Origin: Candidatus Bathyarchaeota archaeon
GTDB lineage: Archaea > Thermoproteota > Bathyarchaeia > Bathyarchaeales > Bathycorpusculaceae
DNA length: 64,000 nt
Reading direction: 5' to 3'
Assembly (NCBI GenBank): GCA_963775465.1
Contig: CAVZIW010000001.1
Coordinates: 64,001 to 128,000, forward strand
The notes under the pieces are model-generated. The model did no database searches. It was not told the origin of the DNA and saw nothing but the letters and a program-made list of their open reading frames with translations. Both the position numbers and the translations under genes were made by a program. Positions 2,526 through 62,365 of the stretch are shown one piece after another. Each line of letters starts with the position of its first letter. The stretch's first letter is position 1.

Positions 2526-3056
2526 TTTCTTTTCTCCAAGTTTATTTGATGTTAAACAGATTCACTTTAGTGGACTTGCTTAACAGAATCCATATCTCGT
2601 TTGCAGTTAGTATATATAATTTTGCCAATTTAGGATTTAATAATTTTATGGCATTATTGATTTGTGTTTGATCCAAAATAAATAATCATTTATGGAATAA
2701 ATTCGGTTTTATGTTAATTGTATCGATTAACAGAGCACGCGAAATGATAAAAACGAATTAGAAGTTAGTATTGTTGTAGACAGTATAAGGGGTAGATAAA
2801 AATAGACTACCATAATAGTACCAGATTTCTGGCTGTATACTACCCGAAGAATCTAATATGGCCATTTTTTAGAATTCGCGGCTTTGGTTTTTAGTTAATC
2901 ATTACTAATGCTTTTGATGGTATTGCTAAAAATCTACGGTTCTTGTCATAATATTACATGTAATCCTAATGCTTAAGCAATTTCTGTTAATAGAAAGTCT
3001 CACCTTAAGAAATAGAGTTTATTAGGAAGTTTTTAGTTTCTTCGTTGCACGTTGTT

Positions 3057-3130
3057 GCGGTAATAGTACAGCTTGGTTAGTACATAGGCTTGCCAAGTCT
3101 AGGACCCGGGTTCAAATCCCGGTTACCGCA
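3057..3130 (+). tRNA. tRNA-Gly (GCC)
   Basis: Acceptor stem GCGGTAA/TTACCGC, anticodon arm TAGGC-TTGCCAA-GTCTA, T arm CCGGG-TTCAAAT-CCCGG, no intron, CCA not encoded. Confidence 0.96.
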
Positions 3131-3232
3131 CTTTCATAAATAAGCTTTGGCACAGATGCTAAAATTCTTCAATGTATATCTTAATTCAGTTTGTCTTTGA
3201 AAAGCTAAAATAATGGCACATTGATTTATTGA

Positions 3233-3547
3233 TTGATGGTCTGCTTGTGTTCTGTGTGTAGAAGAAGCATTAGTGAGAATGTTAACCAACAGTCAATGAA
3301 GAGTTTTGGAACGGCTCTATGTTTAGAACATCAGAAGACCGCAAAGGCAAATAGCAATCCTGTTTACTGGTGTTCCGAATGCAAGAACGCAATTTCTCAT
3401 GAAGAGTTTACATACTCGATTAACCATTTTGACAAACCTCTCTGTTTCGGCTGCCAGCCTGAGGAAGAGGAAAAGGTAAGTGCCCCTCCTCAAAAAAGAG
3501 GCTTGAACAGAGGGTCTTTGATAGAATTTGGCAAGAAATATCCATAG
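3233..3547 (+). CDS. Small protein with two tandem CxxC-I...S...F...LCxx(H/C)Q putative zinc-binding repeats
   Basis: CSVCRRSI...SMKSFGTALCLEHQ and CSECKNAI...SINHFDKPLCFGCQ. Confidence 0.7.
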   Translation: MMVCLCSVCRRSISENVNQQSMKSFGTALCLEHQKTAKANSNPVYWCSECKNAISHEEFTYSINHFDKPLCFGCQPEEEEKVSAPPQKRGLNRGSLIEFGKKYP

Positions 3548-3938
3548 ACAAATTTGCCTAATACCTTGAAATACTAAGAGATAATTTTTATGCGGAGTTA
3601 AAAGCAGTAAAAGCAGAGCCAAAATTGACAAAAGAAATTAATGAAAATTTTTAAAGACAAAAATATTTTTGTTCAGATATAGAGCCTATTTTAATGCCAT
3701 ATATTGCCCAATCTATTTTTTACGCGCTCTTGACACATCAACCATACCAAAAGTTGAATCTAACGACTAAAAAATAGTCCGATTAATTTGTAATTTTAAT
3801 TTTACTTATTTTAATGCCGTTCGGAGACTTCTCAAACAAAATTAATCGAGAACTTGACTTAATTATCACTGTTTATGTAAATAGGTATATTTGTAAATGT
3901 TATAAACGCTTTTATGTATATTTTTTTGAAAAAGACAC

Positions 3939-17584: not shown

Positions 17585-18580
17585 ATGTCTGACGTAATTT
17601 CTGTGAAGAATCTAGTTGAAGTATATAATGATGGCACAAAAGCTGTTGACGATATTTCATTCAATGTTAAGGAAGGCGAATTTTTTGGTTTTTTGGGTCC
17701 CAACGGTGCAGGCAAAAGCACGACTATCAAGATCTTAACAACTCTGCTTAGAAAAACTTCAGGGTCTGTTGAAATTGCTGGTTTCAACCTTGATTCAGCT
17801 GCATCGGATATCCGTAAGATTATCGGTGTTCAAAGCCAAGAGACCACTGTTGATGGAGACTTAACTGGTCGAGAAAACATTGAGTTGCAGGGACATTTTC
17901 ACCAGATGAAGAGTGAAAATATCAAAATACGAGTTGACGAACTCTTGGGTTTAGTAGGTCTCCAAGAAGCTGCTGAAAAACGCGCTAGAAACTATTCGGG
18001 TGGCATGAAAAAACGCCTTGACCTAGCCACTGCCCTTATTCATAAACCAAAACTTCTCTTTCTAGATGAACCAACCACGGGTTTGGATCCTCAGTCACGG
18101 GCAGCCATTTGGGGATATTTACAGAAACTAAACAAGGATGAAGGAATAACTATTTTCTTAACTACTCAGTACCTGGAAGAAGCAGATAAGTTATGCAAAA
18201 GACTTTCAATAATTGATTCGGGAAAAATAGTTGCAAGTGGCTCTCCAACTGAGCTAAAGCGGGAAATTGGCGCCGACTCCATTAGAATTTCTCTTGAGAA
18301 CTGTAAAAAAGACAGCTCTAGAGCCAAAGAAATAATCAAAACAATGACAGATGTTACCGATATAATGGAGTCAGAAGAATGTCTCACAGTTTACGCCAAG
18401 AACGCTGGTCTACTAATCGCTGATATCGTGCGGGCTTTAGATAGTAGTGATATTCGGCTTGCGTCAGTTACGTTTTCTTCGCCTTCGCTTGATGATGTTT
18501 TTATGAAGCATACTGGCAAGCGAATACGGACTGAGGAGCTCGTTAAAGCTCCCAGTAGAATGTTTGGAGGTCGACGTTAA
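17585..18580 (+). CDS. ABC exporter ATP-binding protein (DrrA-like)
   Basis: GPNGAGKST, YSGGM, LFLDEPTTGLDP, SLDDVF C-terminal motif. Confidence 0.95.
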   Translation: MSDVISVKNLVEVYNDGTKAVDDISFNVKEGEFFGFLGPNGAGKSTTIKILTTLLRKTSGSVEIAGFNLDSAASDIRKIIGVQSQETTVDGDLTGRENIELQGHFHQMKSENIKIRVDELLGLVGLQEAAEKRARNYSGGMKKRLDLATALIHKPKLLFLDEPTTGLDPQSRAAIWGYLQKLNKDEGITIFLTTQYLEEADKLCKRLSIIDSGKIVASGSPTELKREIGADSIRISLENCKKDSSRAKEIIKTMTDVTDIMESEECLTVYAKNAGLLIADIVRALDSSDIRLASVTFSSPSLDDVFMKHTGKRIRTEELVKAPSRMFGGRR

Positions 18581-48089: not shown

Positions 48090-48402
48090 TGGGCTGGCGT
48101 GTTGGTGTGTGGCTTTCGGACCCCAAAGGGTCTGAGGAAACTCCGCCCACATGTAGAATTGCAGTGCCCTCAGGGTACAAGTCGAGAGGCTTGGCAACGG
48201 AGCAGAAACGAAACGTCCAACTGGATATGGCCATGACACATTTGTGATGTCGAGTCCGCCAGCTTGGAAACGATGAAACGGCCGTCCTGCAAGTGGAAAG
48301 GGCAAACAGCGCCGATGAAGTCTCTACCGGAAGGTGCAGGTAGCCCGATTAGCCGAATGCCACAAATAACAGAAGGCGGGTTACGGCCAATACACCAGCC
48401 CA
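48090..48402 (+). ncRNA. rnpB: Archaeal RNase P RNA
   Basis: P1 TGGGCTGGCGTGTTGG / CCAATACACCAGCCCA; CR-I GAGGAAACTCCGCCC; CR-II GCAGAAAC; CR-III TGAAACGG; CR-V AACAGAAGGCGGGTTA completing P4. Confidence 0.95.
48373..48401 (+). repeat. attL: 29-bp direct repeat equal to the 3' end of rnpB
   Basis: AAGGCGGGTTACGGCCAATACACCAGCCC, matched at 56931-56959 with one mismatch. Confidence 0.9.
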
Positions 48403-49609
48403 CGTATTCAACAGAAGATAGCTGAAATAACAAATAACAGCCCTTCTGTTATATACGCCAATTCTAATGCTTTGGAATATTGGAAAAAGGAATTAGCAAA
48501 TAGAGACAGCAAAACTGCTTTACGATATCTCCAATACTTCAAGGGTTTCGTGGAATACATGGGACTGACTCCAGACCAAATATTAGCACAGCGAGAGCTG
48601 GATTTAAGAAGTTTAAATAGAAAAGTACAGCGCAGATTTGAAAGTGAATTCAAAGCCTACTTAGCCAAGAAAAGGGATGAAGGATTCAAAATTGCCACCC
48701 AGCAAGTAATGTTTGCTGCAATTCGCTCATTTTTTGAAATTCACTATTGCCCTCTAATAATGAGGAAAGGAGACTATCCAAAAGGAGATAGTAACGGTGT
48801 AAAAAGAGCAACAAAAGAAGCTATACTCAAAATCTTAACAAATAAAACAAGAAATTCCTTCACTTCACACACTCTTATTTTATTCATCAAGGATACTGGA
48901 TTACGCATTAGCGACGTAGTTGCAATGAAATGTGGAGACATTCCCCATCAGATTGAGAAAGGAATTTGCCCCATACAAATTAACGTAATCACTGAGAAAA
49001 CTAACCTCTTAGCTAAGACTTTCATAGGAAAAGAAGCCATCGATGCACTCAAAACCTATCTCGAAATACGAAAAGTTGGAAGTAAATGGCATAAGGAAAT
49101 AATTCCTGAAAAAATAACGCCAAATAGCCCATTGTTTAGATCTTGGACTTGTGGCTTAGTTAAGCCTTTGAACCGAATAACCGCTTCGCATCTGATCCGA
49201 AACGCATTTCTCTACATTGAAGAGAAGAGGATGTCAGCTCACAGTTTGCGAAAGAAGCTTCAAACAGATTTGGAGAAAGCTGGAGTAAACTCTAACTGGA
49301 TAGACCAGATCTTAGGGCATCAACTCATAAACAGCCGAGACGCATACAGTTTACCGACTGATGAAGAGTTAAAAGATGCCTATACAATCGCATACCAATA
49401 CATCAATCTATTCAGATTCTACATTAACTAAGGAAGGATCTAAACAAAAGACAAATGTTTCATACGAGTCGACAAAAGCAGACAACTGCGATTATTCAGT
49501 AGCAGAGGCAAGAAATATTATAGAAGTAAAAACACTATTGGCAAAAGGCTTCAAATATGAGATGGACTACGATGGCATTAAGCTATTTACAAAAAATAGG
49601 CACTTTTAA
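48373..49609 (+). CDS. Tyrosine recombinase/integrase, C-terminal part; frame open from the att site; apparent frameshift near 49408
   Basis: TGLRISD, EKT, HSLRK, LGH, DAYS catalytic set in ORF 48472-49431; the frame continues upstream to the att (KAGYGQYTSPRIQQKIAE...); ORF 49376-49609 tail (EVKTLLAKGFKYEMDYDGIKLFTK) resembles archaeal integrase C-termini. Confidence 0.88.
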
Positions 49610-49661
49610 TGTTTGAAAGTCTTTTATACTTAAAAAACTGAAAACCCATAGAGGTAATTTC

Positions 49662-50450
49662 GTGAATCGAAGTCCAATTCAAGAACATACTACTGCACTT
49701 GTAAAGAACCTGATTAATGAATCAAAATCACTAAAAAAATTGGATCAAACAACAGTTAATGGCCGTCTAAAAGAACTGTTTATCTCTAAACTATTGAGCA
49801 AGTTTCTAACTAGCCAATTCGGAATAGGAAGTGGAGTGATAATTAATCAAATAGGCAAAGCTAGCAAGCAAATTGACATCATAATATATGATAAGAGAAT
49901 ACTACCACCGTTTATTGTTGAGCAAAACATAGGCGTTTATCCGATTGAATCTGTTTTAGCTGCCATTGAGGTACGAAGTCACGTAGATAAGTCGACAATT
50001 AAAATGTATGCAGAAAAAGCAACAAAATTAACTGCTGAAATATATGATTCTGATTGGAGTTTATACAGAGACTACTCGAAATATTTACCGTTTTATTGCC
50101 TTGTAGGTTTTTGTGATAAAGAACCATTTAAAGGTAAGAATTTTGACGAGATCTGGAGTTGGATGGCAAACAATGCCAAACCGCTTTTCGGCGTTTGCAT
50201 TATAAATAAACTTTCTTGGTTAAAAGTCTGTGGCGTAAAAGGTGCATTACATTTAGTAGACGATAATAGCGAGGAGACGAAAGCATTTATAGCGATCTTG
50301 CTTGACAATATTCGTACTTCTTCTCAGCGGAGATACCTGCACCTTGCTTATCACATAGATTGGCTAGGAATTTACACTCGAGATCAAACGGGAATAAAGA
50401 ATATTTTTGAGCAAAGAGAGGTTTCAAGAAAAGCGCAAGGAAAATTCTAG
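49662..50450 (+). CDS. Putative PD-(D/E)XK nuclease (DUF6602-like)
   Basis: GRLKE...FL...GSGVII...SKQIDIIIYD...PIESVLAAIEVRS. Confidence 0.75.
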   Translation: MNRSPIQEHTTALVKNLINESKSLKKLDQTTVNGRLKELFISKLLSKFLTSQFGIGSGVIINQIGKASKQIDIIIYDKRILPPFIVEQNIGVYPIESVLAAIEVRSHVDKSTIKMYAEKATKLTAEIYDSDWSLYRDYSKYLPFYCLVGFCDKEPFKGKNFDEIWSWMANNAKPLFGVCIINKLSWLKVCGVKGALHLVDDNSEETKAFIAILLDNIRTSSQRRYLHLAYHIDWLGIYTRDQTGIKNIFEQREVSRKAQGKF

Positions 50451-50798
50451 TAATTTGGCTACAACTTATTAATTCGTTCCAGTTTGCGCGGGTCGCTCCG
50501 CTTCCCCGCTTTCTTTCAAATGAAAAGAAAGACAAGAAAAGAAACGGTTGCAATTGCAAAACCTTCCTACACTTTAGACCTTCGTCAACGAACCAAAAAA
50601 CTATGCGCATCAATCACATATCGTTCTCTTAATAGAAAAAAGAGTTATCTAAAGTAAAAACTAAAATATCAATAATTTTAAATAATGTTGAATTGAATTC
50701 ATTTGGATTTAAGAATAGATATTTCGATAAATTTTATTTGATGCAAAATTTCTTATACAACTTACGTCTAGAATTTATAGTTAGCGAGGTATGTTGCA

Positions 50799-51908
50799 AT
50801 GGTAAATAGAGAATCTTTTTCACGTGCTAAAAAGAGTGCTAGTGAACATTACAATGCGGCTCTTGGTGCTATACTTCTTTTGGTAGTTGCGGTTACTCTC
50901 TTGATAGGTTTGCCTTCGTTTATTGATCCAGAATCAGCTGTGGGTCTGACTGTTACGGTTGTTTGTGGAGTAACGGCGCTGTTGGCCACTTTGGTTCTTA
51001 CTACTTTTATTTTAAGTTGCTTAGGCTTATCGAATAGGGATGAGGCACTTGGATTGCCAACGGGTAGCGTGCGAGCGATTATTGCTTTGAGTCTAATTCT
51101 AATCTTTTCTATCCTGAGTATTTTTATGTTTCAATATATGGATGATCCCGTGGTTACAACAACAATTAATACTGTCACAACTAATAATTCTACAATTGGT
51201 CAAGAAATAATCACAAACCAGACAGATGTAATCAAGGGGACTTCACAAGCTGTAGTTGACTTTTCTAAGCAAACGTTAACAACTGTTGGAACCTTGGTTG
51301 TTGCTATTGCGGCTTTCTATTTTGGAACAAGATCTGTTCAGGTTGCTCAAGGTTCGACAGAAAAAACTGAATTATTCATTGATCCTTCAGGAACAAAAGA
51401 ATTAGTAATAGATTCTGATAATAAACTAACACCACTTACCATTTTAATAAAGCCTACTCCAGATGACGCGGCAGTTAGTTACAAAGTAGTTGACGATGAG
51501 TATAAATCGCTACAGCGTGAGAGTTCAAACAGGTATATTTATACCCCCACTACTGCAGAGGCGAAAGATGTTACTTTAACTTTCGAAATGCCAGCTTACT
51601 CTGATGTCGCGGCTAAAGAGCTCAAAGTGAAAATTGTCAAACCTGAGCTATCTATCGAACCTTCTACAGACAAGGAAATAACAAAAGGTGCCAGTATATC
51701 TTTTGAAGCTAAACCTTCGCCTAAAGACACGGATGTTGAATGCACTTTGGCTGGCGATGATAAAGGCTCAGTGAAGCAAGATCCTAAGAACAAATTTACC
51801 TATACATCTGCAATTGACGAAGGCAAAGAGGCTACTTTAACTTTCAAAATGTCTAAGTACCCCAATGTCGCGGCTAAAGAGCTCAAAGTGAAAATTGTCA
51901 AAAAGTAG
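50799..51908 (+). CDS. Membrane protein with two C-terminal beta-rich (Ig-like) repeats
   Basis: Four TM helices with LGLPTGSVRAIIAL and FYFGTRS; duplicated YT...LTFxM..Y..VAAKELKVKIVK. Confidence 0.8.
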   Translation: MVNRESFSRAKKSASEHYNAALGAILLLVVAVTLLIGLPSFIDPESAVGLTVTVVCGVTALLATLVLTTFILSCLGLSNRDEALGLPTGSVRAIIALSLILIFSILSIFMFQYMDDPVVTTTINTVTTNNSTIGQEIITNQTDVIKGTSQAVVDFSKQTLTTVGTLVVAIAAFYFGTRSVQVAQGSTEKTELFIDPSGTKELVIDSDNKLTPLTILIKPTPDDAAVSYKVVDDEYKSLQRESSNRYIYTPTTAEAKDVTLTFEMPAYSDVAAKELKVKIVKPELSIEPSTDKEITKGASISFEAKPSPKDTDVECTLAGDDKGSVKQDPKNKFTYTSAIDEGKEATLTFKMSKYPNVAAKELKVKIVKK

Positions 51909-52057
51909 GTTGCAGAGGTAATATTAATTGACAAGCTAACTCCATCCTTTTTTTATTATCATTTCTTAATTTTCTTTAAAGAGGTTATAGACTCAGCAAA
52001 TATTTACTTATACTTCTTTTTAGCAAAGAACCTTGCAAAGAACCTATCAAATCGCAG

Positions 52058-52366
52058 CTATTCGAAGTCATTCTCAGCTCTGAATTTCTCCCATATATCC
52101 AGCATATCTACAAAACCGTAGAATAAACTAGGCAAAGTTCTAGGCGCATAAGCACCTAAAGAATCGAATGACAAAACAACATTGAAAAACAGATAATGGC
52201 TATTAAAACGATAGTAGATTGAAATGCTGTTAGTCAATCTTAATTTGTGGTATCCTTTGGAATGAGCGGGAGTCACCCAATCTCTGTCATCAACCAAGCT
52301 ATCGCTTTCGACGTTATCCAAAATCATGTTTTCCCCTCTCGACCCAAACGTCTCCTTGCCCCTCAT
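52058..52366 (-). CDS. Hypothetical protein downstream of rep
   Basis: ORF overlapping the rep stop; likely start at MILDN. Confidence 0.5.
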   Translation of the reverse strand: MRGKETFGSRGENMILDNVESDSLVDDRDWVTPAHSKGYHKLRLTNSISIYYRFNSHYLFFNVVLSFDSLGAYAPRTLPSLFYGFVDMLDIWEKFRAENDFE

Positions 52367-53374
52367 TTATGTCACAAAATTCGCTTCTCTGATAGTCAAC
52401 GCTGTCTTTGCTGTAGATGAAACATCGATTGCCGAGATAGCGTAAGGGAACCAATTTTTTTTGACAAATAGGACAAAGCTCTTTGCGTTTTTGAATGGTG
52501 ACTTTTAGTTTGCGGTAGCTGCACGTTCCAAACCAAGTTGCAACGTGGAAGCGGACAACATTGCGTTTAACAGAAGCATGGTTCAGTTGATACCAAGCCG
52601 TTCCCATGATGGTTTTACGTTCATCTTTGACCTTTACGATATAACCATCTTTTTCAAACAATCGCCGAGTTCTTGCTTCAAATCCGTTACAACCCGCGCA
52701 AGTGATTATGCTTTTAGCGTTGAATTTCGGGCAATGGCGACATTGTCCGTAACCATTTAGGATAAAGCCAATACAGTGAAAGTGAGGACTCCAGTACCAG
52801 CCCTTCATGTTGCGGATTCCGTTATTGTAAACATCGTGGGCACGATATCTGAAACCATGAAAGATTAGTACACCACCGATAACGCCTCTCGATTTCAGGA
52901 TTTTTGAAGCTTTTAATCGTAATTGCTCAAAATCTAATCCATAATCAGTTTTGGGAATACTTACAATGATGTGTTCGGCAACACCAGAAGTCTTGGAAGC
53001 CTCACATATTCGCTGAGTTATTCTATCTGCTTCACGAACAGCCCAACCAGACTTAAACAGACTGGGCAAGTCGGTTTGTCACAGCTAGCATGAACCTTTC
53101 GAACAAACACCTTACCTTTATAGTTCATTCTGTCTAGCGTTGTCTTATTGTGTAATTCGGTATGAAGGCAACCCTTGAAACTGACAAATCGACCGCAGTT
53201 TGAGTTAGTTAGTTTTCCATGACCTACGAGTTCGAAATCGCCATAGACACCCCACTTCTGAAAACTCTCATCGTCGAGAGATTTCTCGAACTCTTGATAA
53301 GCCTTTTCTTCTTCGGATTTAACAAACAATGTTTTTTCATTTTTTCTCTTGCTAATATAATGAGGAAAACACAT
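52314..53374 (-). CDS. rep: HUH-superfamily rolling-circle replication initiator, frameshifted near 53056
   Basis: Motif I-like HIIVS, motif II WSPHFHCIG, motif III WYQLNH; adding one T to TGTTTAAG joins ...SCDKPTCPVC to FKSGWAVREA; C-terminal CPIC. Confidence 0.8.
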
Positions 53375-53416
53375 AAATGGTAAAGTAAATTTGCCAGTAA
53401 AGGAGATTGAGTACTT

Positions 53417-53974
53417 GTGGAGAAATTTAAGGATGAATATTGTGAAAAAATTTTCGTAGTAATTTCAAACAATGATAACGAAGTTAGATTCAACGAATTA
53501 CACCGACAACTAGCCAAATATGGTGCAAAAATGTCAAAACCGACTTTGATTCAACATTTAAATCACCTTTTAGAAAAAGGAATTGTTCTACGCAAGGAAA
53601 CCGACAAACAAAATGTAACCTATGGAATAGATTGGAAAGAATACATTGAGGCGCAAAGAGTCAAGAAGTCTATGGAAAAAATGTCTAAGAGTAAAGAGAA
53701 TTTCAAGTTGGAAAGCATAAATAATCAAGTTATTTACGCCTGTGGTATGTTAACTTTGGGCGAGTTCTATTTTACTAAATTTGCTATTCTTGACCTTATT
53801 GAACCAGAAAAAAAGCTACAGCACTATATCTCTTATCAACTGATTCGAAGGATTTCTAGTATTTACTTTTCATGGCTTTTAGATACCTGCAAAGGTTCCC
53901 AAGAAAACAGTCAAAAAGCACTAAAATACATAGACAAACGCATCAAAGAAATTCACAAAGCTCTTTCAGGATAG
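53417..53974 (+). CDS. Winged-HTH transcriptional regulator, divergent from rep
   Basis: VRFNELHRQL...MSKPTLIQHLNHLLEKGIV...VTY. Confidence 0.85.
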   Translation: MEKFKDEYCEKIFVVISNNDNEVRFNELHRQLAKYGAKMSKPTLIQHLNHLLEKGIVLRKETDKQNVTYGIDWKEYIEAQRVKKSMEKMSKSKENFKLESINNQVIYACGMLTLGEFYFTKFAILDLIEPEKKLQHYISYQLIRRISSIYFSWLLDTCKGSQENSQKALKYIDKRIKEIHKALSG

Positions 53975-54428
53975 TAAACATAAAAAACATACTTGGTAGA
54001 ATAAGGGAGTAACATCGCTAACGGCTCCCTCTTCTTCAGCCATGGCGTATTTGCCCTTTAAAAATAGACCGCTTTTTTATAAAAAGCTAAGCAAAAATGA
54101 ATTACTCTATGTTTGCACAAGAGTAATCAGAAAGCCTTGTTTTTTGGCACCCCAAGACCCAAAAAACCGCCAATTTAACAGCTAATATGATGTTGCCCTT
54201 TTAGCAATCCTCTATGCCTTGCAGAACAACGCCTGCATCTTTTTTGACCCGTTGGAATTTTCCGCCATTCAGGAGTCTTGGCGCGTGCCTTAAGCTTCCC
54301 ATTACAGTCACAACAGTGATATTTTACTGGTCTATCCCTAATTCCAAAAATCTGCAAGAATTAATCACTTTAAAACTAATCTTTCTGCTTTTAACTCTGT
54401 CTTATCAGTCTCATATTAATGTTTATGA

Positions 54429-54501
54429 AGCAAGACACCTCGCCTAGCGGATGACCCCATCCTAAAGGATACCTCCCCGCAGGCAAGGGCTCTGTCTTGC
54501 T
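54429..54501. repeat. Long imperfect hairpin; partial copy at 58001-58050
   Basis: AGCAAGACA/TGTCTTGCT outer stem, CCTCGCCT(A)GCGG/CCGCAGGCAAGG middle stem, ATCCT-AA-AGGAT apex. Confidence 0.75.
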
Positions 54502-54719
54502 AAATAAACAAATAAACGAAAAAGAGAAGTATCGGTTTCTTATTATTTGATTAGCTCTTATTGATCTGATTTTGGAGTTGAGAGTGAGTTCCTAAATATT
54601 ATATTGTAGAAAAAACAGTTCAACAATACATTGAACAATTGCGGGGCTGTGTGCTAAAGGAAGGTAGTTACTGTTGGCGGCAATGTCCCCTAAATATTTG
54701 GATAAAAAATTAGTGAGTA

Positions 54720-55064
54720 TTGATGCTTTTGAAAATGAATTCAGCCGTGGAAAAGAGCTACACTCTTATTATTAGAGTGGTTAATTTTAAAGAAAACAAA
54801 CCAATTGAAAATGTTAACGTGACAGTTTTCAGATTAGAACAGGAATCAATAACTCTTAATCAGTGGACTGAAAATCTCAAAAATGGAACTCCATTTAAAA
54901 GGTTGATTTTTTCGATGAATACCGATAATAATGGCATGGTGACCGCTGAGGTTTCAGAAGGTATTTATGAAGCTAAAATCGAAAAATATGGTTTAACTAA
55001 AATTTGTGAGATAACGCAAAACGATGAAATTGTTTTTGTTGAACCAAAAAAGCATTGGTGGTGA
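54720..55064 (+). CDS. Hypothetical protein, carboxypeptidase-regulatory-like beta-sandwich
   Basis: PIENVNVTV...TDNNG...EGIYEAKIEKYG. Confidence 0.65.
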   Translation: MMLLKMNSAVEKSYTLIIRVVNFKENKPIENVNVTVFRLEQESITLNQWTENLKNGTPFKRLIFSMNTDNNGMVTAEVSEGIYEAKIEKYGLTKICEITQNDEIVFVEPKKHWW

Positions 55065-55129
55065 TAGTGAAGAGTGCGCCCGCACTGAATTGCATATTTA
55101 GAAGAAATTCATTAAGAAATCAGAAACAG

Positions 55130-55348
55130 CTATTGTTTGAAAATTACCAGATATTTTCTTTCTATATCTTCTACTATGGTTAATCCATGCTTTTTCGCAT
55201 GAGCTTCTATTCCTGATTTGTTATAATCGCACTTTATTTGAATCTGATAATGGCTAGGAACTCTTTCACATATGTTTACGTATGACGGTTCAACTAAATC
55301 TTTTGACACTAATTCTTTTAGAATAGCCATGGCTTGCTCTCTATTCAA
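55130..55348 (-). CDS. Hypothetical protein
   Basis: 72-aa ORF with plausible composition. Confidence 0.6.
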   Translation of the reverse strand: MNREQAMAILKELVSKDLVEPSYVNICERVPSHYQIQIKCDYNKSGIEAHAKKHGLTIVEDIERKYLVIFKQ

Positions 55349-55783
55349 ATCTAAATACCCACAAAGAATTTAGTTATTTCAAGTAGGCTAAATATTTTTC
55401 CATAGAGAAAGCATAGACAGAACTATCAAAAAATGACCTAATATGTTACTTTAAAGCCTGTTTCGCAGTTCTTACACGTATACTGTTCAACGCGGAAAAC
55501 ATTGCAACTTAGAAATTTGTCAGGGTTGGAAACGTTTTTTCCGCAATTAGGACATTTAGCCACATGCAGCCCTCGAGCATAAACTAGTACTTTTGAAAAA
55601 AGACTTAAGAAGATTTGTGATTACATCAAGGTACAATAGCCATTCCAAAGTTTTCCATAAACACGCGCTAAAAAACAAGTAGTCCTATCAGTAAAGGAAC
55701 CTTGGCTAAAGCAAGTCAGCATTACGCGAAAAGGAATAGACAAGATAACATATATATTTAGAACAAATCAAAATAGTTGTTGA

Positions 55784-56080
55784 GTGAATTATATGATAAA
55801 TTTTGAAGAAATTATGGGGTTACAGGTGGTAACTTCGGAGGCAAATATTATTGGAGTAGTAGAAGGCGCAAAAGTTGACACCGCAACTTGGATGATAAAG
55901 TTTTTGAACGTGAAACTTACTGGTGAGGCTGCCGATAATCTCGGAAAGAAGAAGAGATTCAGAAGTACCAAAATATGCATTCCAGTTGGCATGGTTCAAG
56001 CAGTTGGGAATATAGTAACCATCTCAAGGTCGATAGAAGAGTTGGAAAGCTCTCAGGAAATTACAGAATGCACAAAATAA
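55784..56080 (+). CDS. PRC-barrel domain protein
   Basis: IMGLQVVTSEANIIGVV...VDTATW...IPVGMVQAVGNIV. Confidence 0.85.
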   Translation: MNYMINFEEIMGLQVVTSEANIIGVVEGAKVDTATWMIKFLNVKLTGEAADNLGKKKRFRSTKICIPVGMVQAVGNIVTISRSIEELESSQEITECTK

Positions 56081-56233
56081 AATGAACTAAGATCTTAAGC
56101 ACTGAGACAAGATAGTCTCATATTAGAAACTAAGAGCTTGCTTCAGAATAACCCAACATCTTTGGGGTTTTCTCGCAAATGAGGACTTTGAATTGCCGAC
56201 ACAATTTACCTGCTATGTGTAAGAGAGTTGATT

Positions 56234-56734
56234 TTAGAGAATGTGCATAGTGATGAGAACATGAAATATTATCACCAAGAAAAACACCATGACCAAGCTG
56301 GCGTGAATAAACTTGTTAGTTTTATGGTCAATTTGCTTTATTAACGGGAATCTCTCAGCGAAACCTGATATTACTTCTAATGTCATGGAAATGTAAATAG
56401 CTAAACCCGTTCCTAAAGACGGATAGAAGAATATGGATCTTCCTAGTTGACCCGAAAAATGAATTGAGACTAAAGAGAAGAATAGAAGATTACCGAATAT
56501 GTGGTACCTAAGAAGGCCTTTGTACTTTTGAGGATAATAACGCTTTAAAACTACGAATGCTGGGGTACTGATGGCGATGTAACTTGTTCCAATTATGGCA
56601 AGCCAGTGACTGAAACGAAGAGGACCAACAAAGAAGCTTACGTTAATCCAATGTAGGAAGGCTGCGACCATGAGCAAGGCTGTTACTATGATAAATAGTA
56701 ACGCCAGCAGAAATTCTGAGTTTTTAAAGTCCAA
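56234..56734 (-). CDS. Membrane protein with conserved TM histidines (cytochrome b-like); paralog of 61835-62365
   Basis: SHWL, RYHIFGN, SIHF, FIH, FHV. Confidence 0.75.
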   Translation of the reverse strand: MDFKNSEFLLALLFIIVTALLMVAAFLHWINVSFFVGPLRFSHWLAIIGTSYIAISTPAFVVLKRYYPQKYKGLLRYHIFGNLLFFSLVSIHFSGQLGRSIFFYPSLGTGLAIYISMTLEVISGFAERFPLIKQIDHKTNKFIHASLVMVFFLVIIFHVLITMHIL

Positions 56735-56854
56735 TAAAAATCCTCTTCCTTAAAGTATTGATAACTAAATATAAGAATTACTTAAGGCAGCTTAACTTCA
56801 AATTCTCCTTTCGATGGACTCTAATAAATAGATGACGCGCACTAAAGGAAAACT

Positions 56855-56866
56855 AAAAGTTTATAA
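56855..56866 (+). promoter_or_regulatory. BRE/TATA promoter facing attR, upstream of the putative integrase N-terminal fragment
   Basis: AAAAG-TTTATAA about 33 bp before ATG 56899. Confidence 0.55.
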
Positions 56867-56930
56867 CTAGATAGCGACATAAAGACACAGAGATCAACAT
56901 GAGCGATAATAGAAGAAAATTACTAAGCCC

Positions 56931-56959
56931 AAGGCGGGTTACGTCCAATACACCAGCCC
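56931..56959 (+). repeat. attR: displaced copy of the rnpB 3' end
   Basis: AAGGCGGGTTACGTCCAATACACCAGCCC. Confidence 0.9.
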
Positions 56960-57066
56960 GCATATACAACAGAAGGTATCTGAAGTAACAAAAGACAGCC
57001 CTTCTGTTATACATGCCAATTCTTAATCTTTGAAATATTGGAAAAAGGAATTAGCAAGTAGTGATG
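56960..57066 (+). pseudogene. Truncated remnant of a second, related integrase
   Basis: Translates (P)HIQQKVSEVTKDSPSVIHANS*SLKYWKKELASSD versus PRIQQKIAEITNNSPSVIYANSNALEYWKKELANRD at the left end. Confidence 0.8.
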
Positions 57067-57856: not shown

Positions 57857-58064
57857 AATTCCACCTTCATAGTTCTGAATGATATAGAGCCTTGGAGTAA
57901 AAATATTATACGCTAATCTTTCGCGTCGCTCCCGCTCCGCTTTTTGCCTTGCGCTTTTAAATACAGGCTAAACGGTTAAAGCGACTCGGTTGTGGTGGCA
58001 GATGACCCTCCCTAAAGGATACCCTCCCCGCAAGCAAGGGTTTTGTCTTACAACATCATATTGG

Positions 58065-61100: not shown

Positions 61101-61316
61101 TTTTCCTCCTTTTTTGTTTTTGCACTCAATTTTGGTAAATCATCTCAAACAAGTAACCTGCCCAAAACTCTAACTCAGACACGAAGGTGCATCCTACATG
61201 AATAAAGATGTGTCTTCAACGTTGGAATATTGAAAAAATGTAGTAGCAAACAAAATCGAAATCAATTAGAAACGACTTTGGTGATTCGCTTCCGCTCAGC
61301 CTCACAAATTTTATGT

Positions 61317-61834: not shown

Positions 61835-62365
61835 TTAAATTATGTTTAAGCCATGAAGAATGTGAACGAATATGATTAAGTAAAAAGTAAACGCTAAACC
61901 AGCATGAACAAAACGGTTTGTTGCAGGGTTTAAACGTTGAATTAAGTTAAATCTAAGACATAGCCCAGTTCCAACTAGCGAAACCATTCCAATATACAAC
62001 GCTAAACCTGTGCCAAAGGTAGGGTAGAAATCTGCTGGTCTTCCCACTTGACCTGCAAAATGCATTGAAATCAAAATGAAAGCAATTAGGTTGCCAAACC
62101 CATGGACTCTTAAAAGCAGTTTATACTTTTTTGGGGTCCTTCGTTTCAAGAATGAGAACAGAATCACTCCAAAAGCAATGTAGAGGGTTCCCGCGAATGC
62201 AATGTAGTGAATTATGCGAAACGGACCTACTCGATCAGCAAAACTGAACCAGCGGTTGTAGTATGCAAACATTAAGAAAACGGTCAGAACTATAGCTATT
62301 GTTGCGAGCCAGAGTTCCCAGTTCCTAGTTTCTTTTAGCCTCCAAACTTTTCCCAGTTTATGCAT
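61835..62365 (-). CDS. Membrane protein with conserved TM histidines; paralog of 56234-56734
   Basis: VGPFRIIHY, RVHGFGNL, SMHFAGQVGR, GTGLALY, FVH, VHIL. Confidence 0.78.
   Translation of the reverse strand: MHKLGKVWRLKETRNWELWLATIAIVLTVFLMFAYYNRWFSFADRVGPFRIIHYIAFAGTLYIAFGVILFSFLKRRTPKKYKLLLRVHGFGNLIAFILISMHFAGQVGRPADFYPTFGTGLALYIGMVSLVGTGLCLRFNLIQRLNPATNRFVHAGLAFTFYLIIFVHILHGLNII

Follow-up and report, generated by a model that had tools for sequence, protein, structure and literature searches.

A probable integrated element at the RNase P RNA gene's 3′ end in a Bathyarchaeia genome, and an integrase clade associated with the site

Introduction

RNase P RNA is the catalytic RNA of RNase P, and its gene, rnpB, is essential. 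Archaeal mobile elements of the SSV type, known from Sulfolobus, carry their attachment site (attP) inside the integrase gene, and integration splits that gene. tRNA and tmRNA genes are host to genomic islands and prophages integrated at their 3′ ends (Williams 2002, as cited in PMC12540744; TIGER/Islander, PMC12424338). The TIGER/Islander scheme sorts integration sites into tRNA/tmRNA, protein-coding and intergenic classes only and leaves rnpB unmentioned (PMC12424338). Phage phiEf11 integrates into a different structured RNA gene, ffs (4.5S/signal recognition particle RNA) of Enterococcus faecalis, reported in 2025 as a novel target; in the part of that article available to us, the known non-coding RNA targets listed are tRNA/tmRNA and csRNA, and RNase P models are included in the scanning tool with no rnpB case reported (PMC12540744). 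Here we analyse a 64,000-nucleotide (nt) stretch of DNA from a Candidatus Bathyarchaeota archaeon (the window; assembly GCA_963775465.1, contig CAVZIW010000001.1, positions 64,001 to 128,000), in which positions 48402–56930 very probably make up a plasmid-like element, or the most recent of several stacked ones, that was integrated into the chromosome at the 3′ end of rnpB by tyrosine-recombinase site-specific recombination.

The locus resembles tRNA and tmRNA islands in several respects: a tyrosine integrase lies beside an intact structured-RNA gene that the element's own copy of the 3′ end would rebuild, a displaced 3′ fragment marks the far end, and tandem arrays and remnants occur. It differs from them in its target, the RNase P RNA gene. 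With phiEf11 it has in common a non-tRNA structured RNA gene of the core machinery as chromosomal attachment site (attB) and a short identity block near the integrase gene (27 nt in phiEf11), the difference being that phiEf11 is a bacterial tailed phage using another RNA (PMC12540744). We found no description of rnpB as an integration site in the literature searched, although island-database tables and supplementary files could hold cases.

The 3′ end of rnpB is repeated 8.6 kb downstream

The archaeal RNase P RNA model RF00373 of Rfam is matched end to end at 48097–48395 on the forward strand, with 193.1 bits where the gathering score is 84 (E = 6.7e-56, model positions 1–288). The closing helix P1, read from the sequence, exceeds the model match: 48090–48104 pairs with 48387–48401 over 15 positions with one C·A mismatch and one G·U pair, and rnpB therefore spans 48090–48401. 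A second helix, read in the same way, joins 48375–48382 to 48142–48150 by eight pairs with one bulged U, and we take it from the canonical layout to be P4. The gene is single-copy, with one model match across the 2.4-Mb, 15-contig genome.

The last 29 nt of rnpB recur 8.6 kb downstream (attL and attR cores, Table 1). The two cores differ at one of 29 positions, a G>T change at a base that is unpaired in the RNase P model, and none of 100 shuffles gave two matches. The full repeat is 134 nt long at 87% identity (48373–48506 versus 56931–57064), the extension taking in the spacer plus ~35 nt at the start of the integrase open reading frame (ORF). It runs this far because the stump of an older related integrase gene follows the right copy. 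The right copy therefore doubles as the left end of an earlier, related element, so that the site has been used at least twice. The stump downstream of attR is shared with G022, the closest relative (G and L numbers denote genomes and loci of our comparison). An initial annotation of the window had already proposed an RNase P gene at 48090–48402, an integrase abutting it, and a 29-nt repeat with one mismatch that covers the 3′ strands of P4 and P1; all of these hold, and the repeat proves longer than claimed and records serial integration.

Other loci supplied 24 attL/attR pairs, in all of which identity sets in sharply at one and the same base, directly after the ACAG of conserved region V, and extends to the end of the rnpB gene. 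Mismatches between the paired cores concentrate at +5 to +7 after GGTTA (6–10 of 24 pairs), a region where GT is found in 9 of 23 displaced copies versus 4 of 24 resident ones. This pattern hints that strand exchange may take place 3′ of that point, toward the last ~14 nt; the comparison of rnpB between the window (G000) and locus L111 is open to the opposite reading. The earlier claim that an incoming element must supply the catalytic-core strand of the ribozyme goes further than this evidence: the identity block covers the P4 strand, and the weak mismatch pattern points to exchange within those last ~14 nt. In other occupied loci the displaced copies precede T-rich sequence, as is found directly after rnpB in genomes that have no integrase there.

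Relaxed searches of the window for further att copies returned just the two cores and the 5′ strand of P1. A 29-nt candidate third copy at 61222–61250, which resembles the start of the integrase gene, was rejected, as the alignment shows no att core there.

Two unusual rnpB loci were seen in passing. In L073 (G020; 17875–18030) the match joins positions 1–23 almost directly to 178–305 and looks internally deleted, and a full rnpB was not found with the same query in this 95%-complete assembly. L084 carries two complete, near-identical rnpB copies (176–479, forward; 2855–3161, reverse) that face one another across 2.4 kb where a 253-kb contig ends; integrase-type sequence follows both, and the arrangement reflects either an inverted duplication or a fold-back artefact of assembly.

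An integrase clade associated with rnpB

The ORF that follows rnpB encodes a tyrosine integrase (PF00589, 60.7 bits against a gathering score of 27.1, E = 2e-16). Residues R145, K176, H257, R260, H283 and Y292 are invariant in 25 sequences and are presumably the catalytic set (Arg, Lys, His-x-x-Arg, His and Tyr). The nearest NCBIfam is archaeal XerA (NF040815), matched at 76.1 bits and so under its equivalog cut-off of 220; by this measure the protein is related to XerA yet is not XerA. Homologues numbered 298 at E ≤ 1e-3, and none was found among 2.9 million viral contigs. Homologous integrases are 360–395 amino acids (aa) long and carry the C-terminal domain in one ORF.

Across the genus of the window, three genes upstream of rnpB are syntenic and the downstream side differs from genome to genome. 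Close integrase homologues (54–66% identity) occur in 3 of 24 other genomes of the genus (G008, G010 and G013), each beside rnpB or a piece of it. Further copies of rnpB positions ~277–305 follow rnpB on its own contig in G001, G002 (two), G003 (two), G008, G013, G019, G021 and G023. In the wider genome collection, 18 of 33 integrase loci have a full or contig-cut rnpB that ends ~45–115 nt before the integrase gene on the same strand; four more have only a 3′ piece, one an inverted piece and two a nearby rnpB with an integrase remnant, leaving eight with none. All but two of the 33 are labelled Bathyarchaeia or Bathyarchaeota. Among 80 metagenome loci, rnpB lies directly upstream in 34, a 3′ piece in two and an inverted piece in two; the 42 with none include nine outgroup rows and several contigs that start inside the integrase gene. 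Many metagenome contigs start inside rnpB, as would be the case if assemblies forked at this gene.

For 90 full-length integrases, a tree (quick IQ-TREE, with support from the Shimodaira–Hasegawa-like approximate likelihood ratio test (SH-aLRT) only, rooted on the outgroup) recovers an ingroup of 81 with support of 100. Within it, 58 integrases have rnpB-derived sequence upstream (27 full, 20 cut by a contig end, four a piece, three inverted and four short and att-like), and these include all deep branches. None of the nine outgroup integrases (26–30% identity) has rnpB upstream; L186, named as a tenth outgroup row, fell in the ingroup and has no upstream sequence. We conclude that rnpB is very probably the ancestral and near-universal target of a large integrase clade, so far in Bathyarchaeia-type records only. 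Two checks proposed in the initial annotation, whether homologous integrases lie next to rnpB and whether they form an rnpB-associated clade, come out in its favour, the association being found far more often than not, and the clade data support its idea of an element family specialised for rnpB. The same architecture recurs in many independent assemblies, single-contig genomes among them, which answers the concern that the second repeat could be a misassembly.

The site also hosts other arrangements. Directly after rnpB in the single-contig genome G003 lies a second, distant tyrosine integrase of 306 aa (L056, 3319–4239, forward; PF00589, E = 5.4e-17) that a search with the window integrase missed; an intact Rep homologue follows it, the displaced rnpB end lies 4.5 kb away, and the last ~30 residues of this integrase are similar to the small C-terminal domain found in the window's family. 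More than one integrase lineage may therefore use rnpB, judging by this sequence. In L064 (G014), a 131-aa C-terminal fragment of a phage-type integrase (3329–3724, reverse) is convergent with rnpB, 27 nt past its end, and G012 (L061) has DNA homologous to this region just after rnpB; the fragment is probably a remnant of another kind of element at the same site. Finally, in the deep-branching loci L094 (8725–8761), L159 (1076–1113) and L167 (951–992) the rnpB 3′ piece sits just upstream of the integrase gene on the opposite strand, and the integrase of these elements would sit at the far (attR) end, pointing inward.

Attachment arms and the integrase reading frame

Both flanks of the core carry conserved sequence. 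The spacers between rnpB and the integrase gene contain one to three ACAGAAG-like repeats, which copy the start of conserved region V, and in 46 distinct spacers ACAGAAG reaches a density of 5.3 per kb versus 0.13 per kb in the background. These repeats are putative integrase-binding sites, and the integrase may recognise its target through the left-arm motif. To the left of the displaced copy, the right arm is conserved at many loci: a TATA-like box is followed ~25–35 nt later by an ATG, from which about a dozen codons lead into the core.

To examine the free form we rebuilt attP junctions in silico for 19 loci by joining the right and left flanks at the core. Ten of the 19 are fused, with one ORF running from the right-arm ATG through core and spacer into the integrase. 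Six more, all from one clade, have instead a leader ORF of 45–55 codons that ends 13–20 nt before the aligned integrase start; in members whose spacers were read, this end lies past the integrase's own ATG, which is preceded by a GGAGG-like site. The remaining three, the window included, show neither pattern. The att core therefore lies inside the integrase frame or overlaps a leader ORF in 16 of 19 rebuilt junctions, and because ORFs run across the junctions, attP falls within the transcription and translation unit of the integrase. Different clades use two different reading frames of the core, and the integrase frame agrees in each. In the window, a shift of one base separates the right-arm ATG (56899) from the integrase frame; all four public-run contig sets and G022 have one extra A after 56930.

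Four loci with only a 21–27-nt att-like piece before the integrase gene (L081, L112, L128 and L133) were considered as free attP forms and not confirmed as such, since their upstream DNA matched the right ends of integrated relatives in the core alone.

These junctions suggest that integration would split the integrase gene in the manner of SSV-type elements, leaving promoter and start codon at the far end. The resemblance to SSV-type elements extends to the ORF from right arm through core into the integrase at ten of 19 junctions, to the leader ORF at six more, and to integrated copies that pile up as remnants. The present elements differ in that the target is not a tRNA gene, only ~12–35 codons are split off and some members have regained a start codon of their own. 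The integrases also differ: in a profile search of PDB sequences, every chain matched at E ≤ 0.01 was of the XerA, XerC-like or XerD kind, with no sign of kinship to the fusellovirus integrase that the PDB holds.

Replication protein and other genes of the element

The features of the element are collected in Table 1. Among its genes, a candidate for a replication function is that of a protein of 350–380 aa, split by a frameshift in the window and intact (380 aa) in G003. In 20 sequences, P205, H206 and H208 (PHxH) and Y278, Q279, L280 and H282 (WYQLxH) are invariant; zinc-ribbon inserts are present, and the H-u-H and Tyr motifs come in the expected order. A word-seeded search of 5.8 billion proteins yielded just 20 homologues (E ≤ 1e-3), and no Pfam domain is found in any of these. 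With the structure model (predicted local distance difference test 74.7), a fold search of BFVD gave ten matches at E ≤ 1e-3 (best 7.5e-6, template-modelling scores of 0.2–0.3), and all four named proteins among the top 50 are microvirus replication initiators; embedding (Atlas) neighbours carry Rep_1 and REP_ORF2-G2P. The protein thus resembles HUH initiators (Pfam Rep_1, microvirus VP4/gpA type) in motif order, microvirus fold matches and Rep_1 neighbours, and differs from them in having no Pfam or PDB fold match; PHROGs and PDB sequence profiles gave no usable match. Motifs and modelled fold make it a probable HUH rolling-circle initiator. Of the rolling-circle Rep in the initial annotation, the motifs and the weak fold and embedding matches stand, and the missing family match and the split frame hold the assignment to probable. 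A related population has one extra base after 53054, which in our reading would rejoin the two rep frames. Rep-like genes accompany the integrase in 19 of 113 loci.

Table 1. Features of the rnpB-associated element in the window
Feature	Position	Strand	Basis or detail
rnpB, archaeal RNase P RNA	48090–48401	+	RF00373 match and extended P1 pairing
attL core, last 29 nt of rnpB, P4 3′ strand through P1 3′ strand	48373–48401	+	Repeat comparison
Left arm (P′ arm) between rnpB and integrase gene	48402–48471	+	ACAGAAG 48411–48417, inverted copy 48443–48449, TATA-like TTATATA 48449–48455
Tyrosine integrase, main ORF, 319 aa	48472–49431	+	PF00589; frame open upstream to 48370, through att core (353 aa)
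Conserved C-terminal ~35-residue domain of integrase, other frame (break after catalytic Tyr)	49376–49609	+	Homologues carry tail in one ORF
PD-(D/E)xK nuclease, DUF6602/NucC-like, cargo	49662–50450	+	PF20247 E = 1.7e-22; PADLOC PD_DExK E = 6.6e-31, NucC E = 5.7e-17
369-aa cargo protein, hydrophobic N-terminal part, internal 114-nt repeat	50799–51908	+	No family (Pfam, PHROGs, PADLOC, NCBIfam)
Small ORF travelling with Rep	52058–52366	−	Homologues adjoin Rep or Rep fragments in L075, L095 and L125
Probable HUH rolling-circle replication initiator, frameshift-split in 53018–53069	52314–53374	−	Motifs, weak fold and embedding matches
Winged-helix regulator candidate	53417–53974	+	Weak helix–turn–helix matches, all under curated cut-offs; Csa3 E = 6.4e-6
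Distal module, 114-aa ORF	54720–55064	+	Homologues beyond att-bounded intervals in relatives
Distal module, PRC-barrel ORF	55784–56080	+	Module may predate integrase–Rep module
Distal module, 166-aa membrane protein	56234–56734	−	No family
Right arm (P arm)	56860–56930	+	TATA-like TTTATAA 56860–56866, ATG 56899–56901, ORF into core
attR core, displaced rnpB 3′ end	56931–56959	+	Repeat comparison
Stump of older related element: left arm and first ~35 nt of integrase ORF, with stops	56960–57064	+	87% identity to 48402–48506

The nuclease may be a defence or addiction gene, and a 73% identical copy follows the integrase gene in L118. The membrane protein of the distal module has a paralogue of 176 aa (61835–62365, reverse; no family) 5 kb beyond the att-bounded interval; across G022 homologues the two are 45–47% identical. 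A G+C-rich intergenic sequence of 59 nt likewise occurs both inside the island and beyond it (54447–54505 and 57998–58056, 71% identity) and has no Rfam match at the gathering score. A 37-nt inverted repeat (arms 54401–54437 and 54493–54529) flanks and partly overlaps its first copy, close to which contig breaks of other populations fall.

Site occupancy and state of this copy

Comparison with relatives shows that the content of the site varies. In L111 the flanking proteins are 88–97% identical to those of the window and the integrase only 63%; the two rnpB genes have seven differences in their first ~283 nt and three in the last 17 nt, and the sequences are unrelated beyond. G007, which belongs to a different species within the genus, has a CAAX-protease-like gene and citrate synthase after rnpB, and 7.2 kb there contain neither an integrase nor the repeat. 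We also compared the contig sets of four public runs, in which shares are small (0.21–0.27) and uncovered parts and the low cover of 48.6–54.1 kb prove no absence. Contigs in two of the runs follow rnpB to 48401 and then continue into different sequence, giving loose ends at 48402. No joint of 48401 to 56960 or of 56930 to 48402 is among those listed for the contigs of the four runs, contigs being prone to drop rare forms. The copy in the window is probably decaying, unless its frame breaks are assembly indels, and it may no longer be mobile.

Competing explanations

Several observations weigh against an integrated, rnpB-specific element. No free circular form was seen, and none of the 80 metagenome loci has a terminal overlap, with the caveat that contigs drop rare forms. 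Within the species itself no empty site turned up; the contigs of the closest relative, G022, end inside rnpB and resume inside the island. Three parts are out of frame in this assembly, namely the integrase tail, rep, and the start in the right arm. The Rep candidate has no Pfam membership (best Rep_1 E = 0.32, in one of 20 members), and its best PDB match by Foldseek has E = 0.32. The short displaced copies are individually weak (E = 0.0005–0.9), and the case for them rests on their common position and strand. Finally, the same integrase family contains a derived clade of 22 (SH-aLRT 99) without rnpB (L083, L086, L120, L123, L138, L144–L148 and others), and 19 of its loci that were scanned contain no Rfam RNA. 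Members of this clade have a conserved TATA-plus-G-run motif ~75 nt before the integrase gene, short repeats of which occur elsewhere in their contigs; ACAATAG-like repeats replace the ACAGAAG repeats, and Rep homologues are still present in L083, L120 and L144. The clade may represent a switch of target specificity.

The alternative that survives best is a composite island, in which only ~48402–54140 (integrase, nuclease, membrane protein, Rep and winged-helix candidate) is the newest element, 54430–56930 (114-aa ORF, PRC-barrel ORF, membrane protein and right arm) is the tail of an older one whose left att has been lost, and the 29-nt copies bound two or three generations. We regard this as possible, though on balance doubtful. 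Two of its supports also count against a single element: summed contig depth is higher over 54.1–57.4 kb than over 48.6–54.1 kb in three of four runs (X2–X4), and in G013 and G023 the 114-aa ORF has homologues past the displaced copy, outside the att-bounded intervals. Similarity in other populations stops near 54137–54166 and resumes near 54428–54459, and one 26.5-kb contig joins 54459–55067 to 56879 onward through 105 other letters, without the PRC and membrane genes. G022 has the right part at 99–100% protein identity, and no close integrase was found in that assembly (best 25%). On the other side, a search for a decayed att between 53974 and 54720 turned up nothing convincing, and the right arm at 56860–56930 is a typical element end lying directly left of the core; the gap in G022 may be an unbinned contig, and depth summed from contigs is not a good gauge.

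A provirus, such as one from a small membrane-enveloped virus whose genome is of the rolling-circle type, is an unlikely substitute for a plasmid-like element. It would suit the small size, the HUH initiator candidate whose only named fold neighbours are microvirus replication proteins, and the 369-aa protein, which with its hydrophobic N-terminal and repeated C-terminal parts could be a virion protein. Searches of Pfam, PHROGs and NCBIfam, however, found no capsid, spike or packaging family, the integrase has no relative in the viral contigs searched, and the element genes other than those for integrase and Rep have few or no homologues in the 113 related loci.

We give next to no credence to a resident, vertically inherited Xer-like gene that merely neighbours rnpB, with the repeat a local duplication or assembly artefact: XerA, XerC and XerD are the nearest named families and the upstream side of rnpB is conserved, but the XerA score is 76 bits against a cut-off of 220, close homologues occur in only three of the 24 other genus genomes, cargo varies, the integrase differs in a near-identical host, repeats stand at the same positions in many independent assemblies, and the repeat here is 134 nt long on a ~430-kb contig.

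Discussion

For the integrated element that we favour, the partners of recombination would be an attP on the element and an attB formed by the final 29 nt of the host's only RNase P RNA gene. As attP carries the same 29 nt, the RNA gene would stay whole, the original end being displaced 8.6 kb downstream. In the free form, which probably replicates by a rolling circle through the orphan HUH initiator, the att core would lie inside the integrase frame or a leader ORF overlapping the integrase start, and integration would sever the integrase from the promoter and start codon left at the far end. A severed integrase would tend to trap elements, which fits the stumps and repeated rnpB ends found downstream of rnpB in the genus. 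We see roughly equal chances for and against the full account, in which a Bathyarchaeia integrase clade specialised on rnpB carries attP in its own coding frame, so that the ribozyme is rebuilt as the integrase loses promoter and start, elements become trapped, and a layered graveyard and gene-capture hotspot forms downstream.

The mechanism of such integration is known; what is new, to the extent that we could check, is the target, how large the dedicated clade is, and that att overlaps the integrase frame. The finding would extend the rule that elements target conserved 3′ ends of structured RNA genes to a third RNA class, and island finders anchored only on tRNA and tmRNA genes would class rnpB islands as intergenic. 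If the frame overlap is as proposed, one 29-nt sequence would have two readings: in the chromosome it forms the 3′ strands of P4 and P1 in an essential ribozyme, and in the free element ~10 codons of an integrase N terminus or leader ORF. A genetic tool could come from an attB conserved across a largely uncultured archaeal class and the integrase family that matches it. For the genus, integration at rnpB would explain the variable hotspot that follows this gene, and in Bathyarchaeia, a group with few described plasmids or viruses, rnpB 3′ fragments provide a marker for mobile elements.

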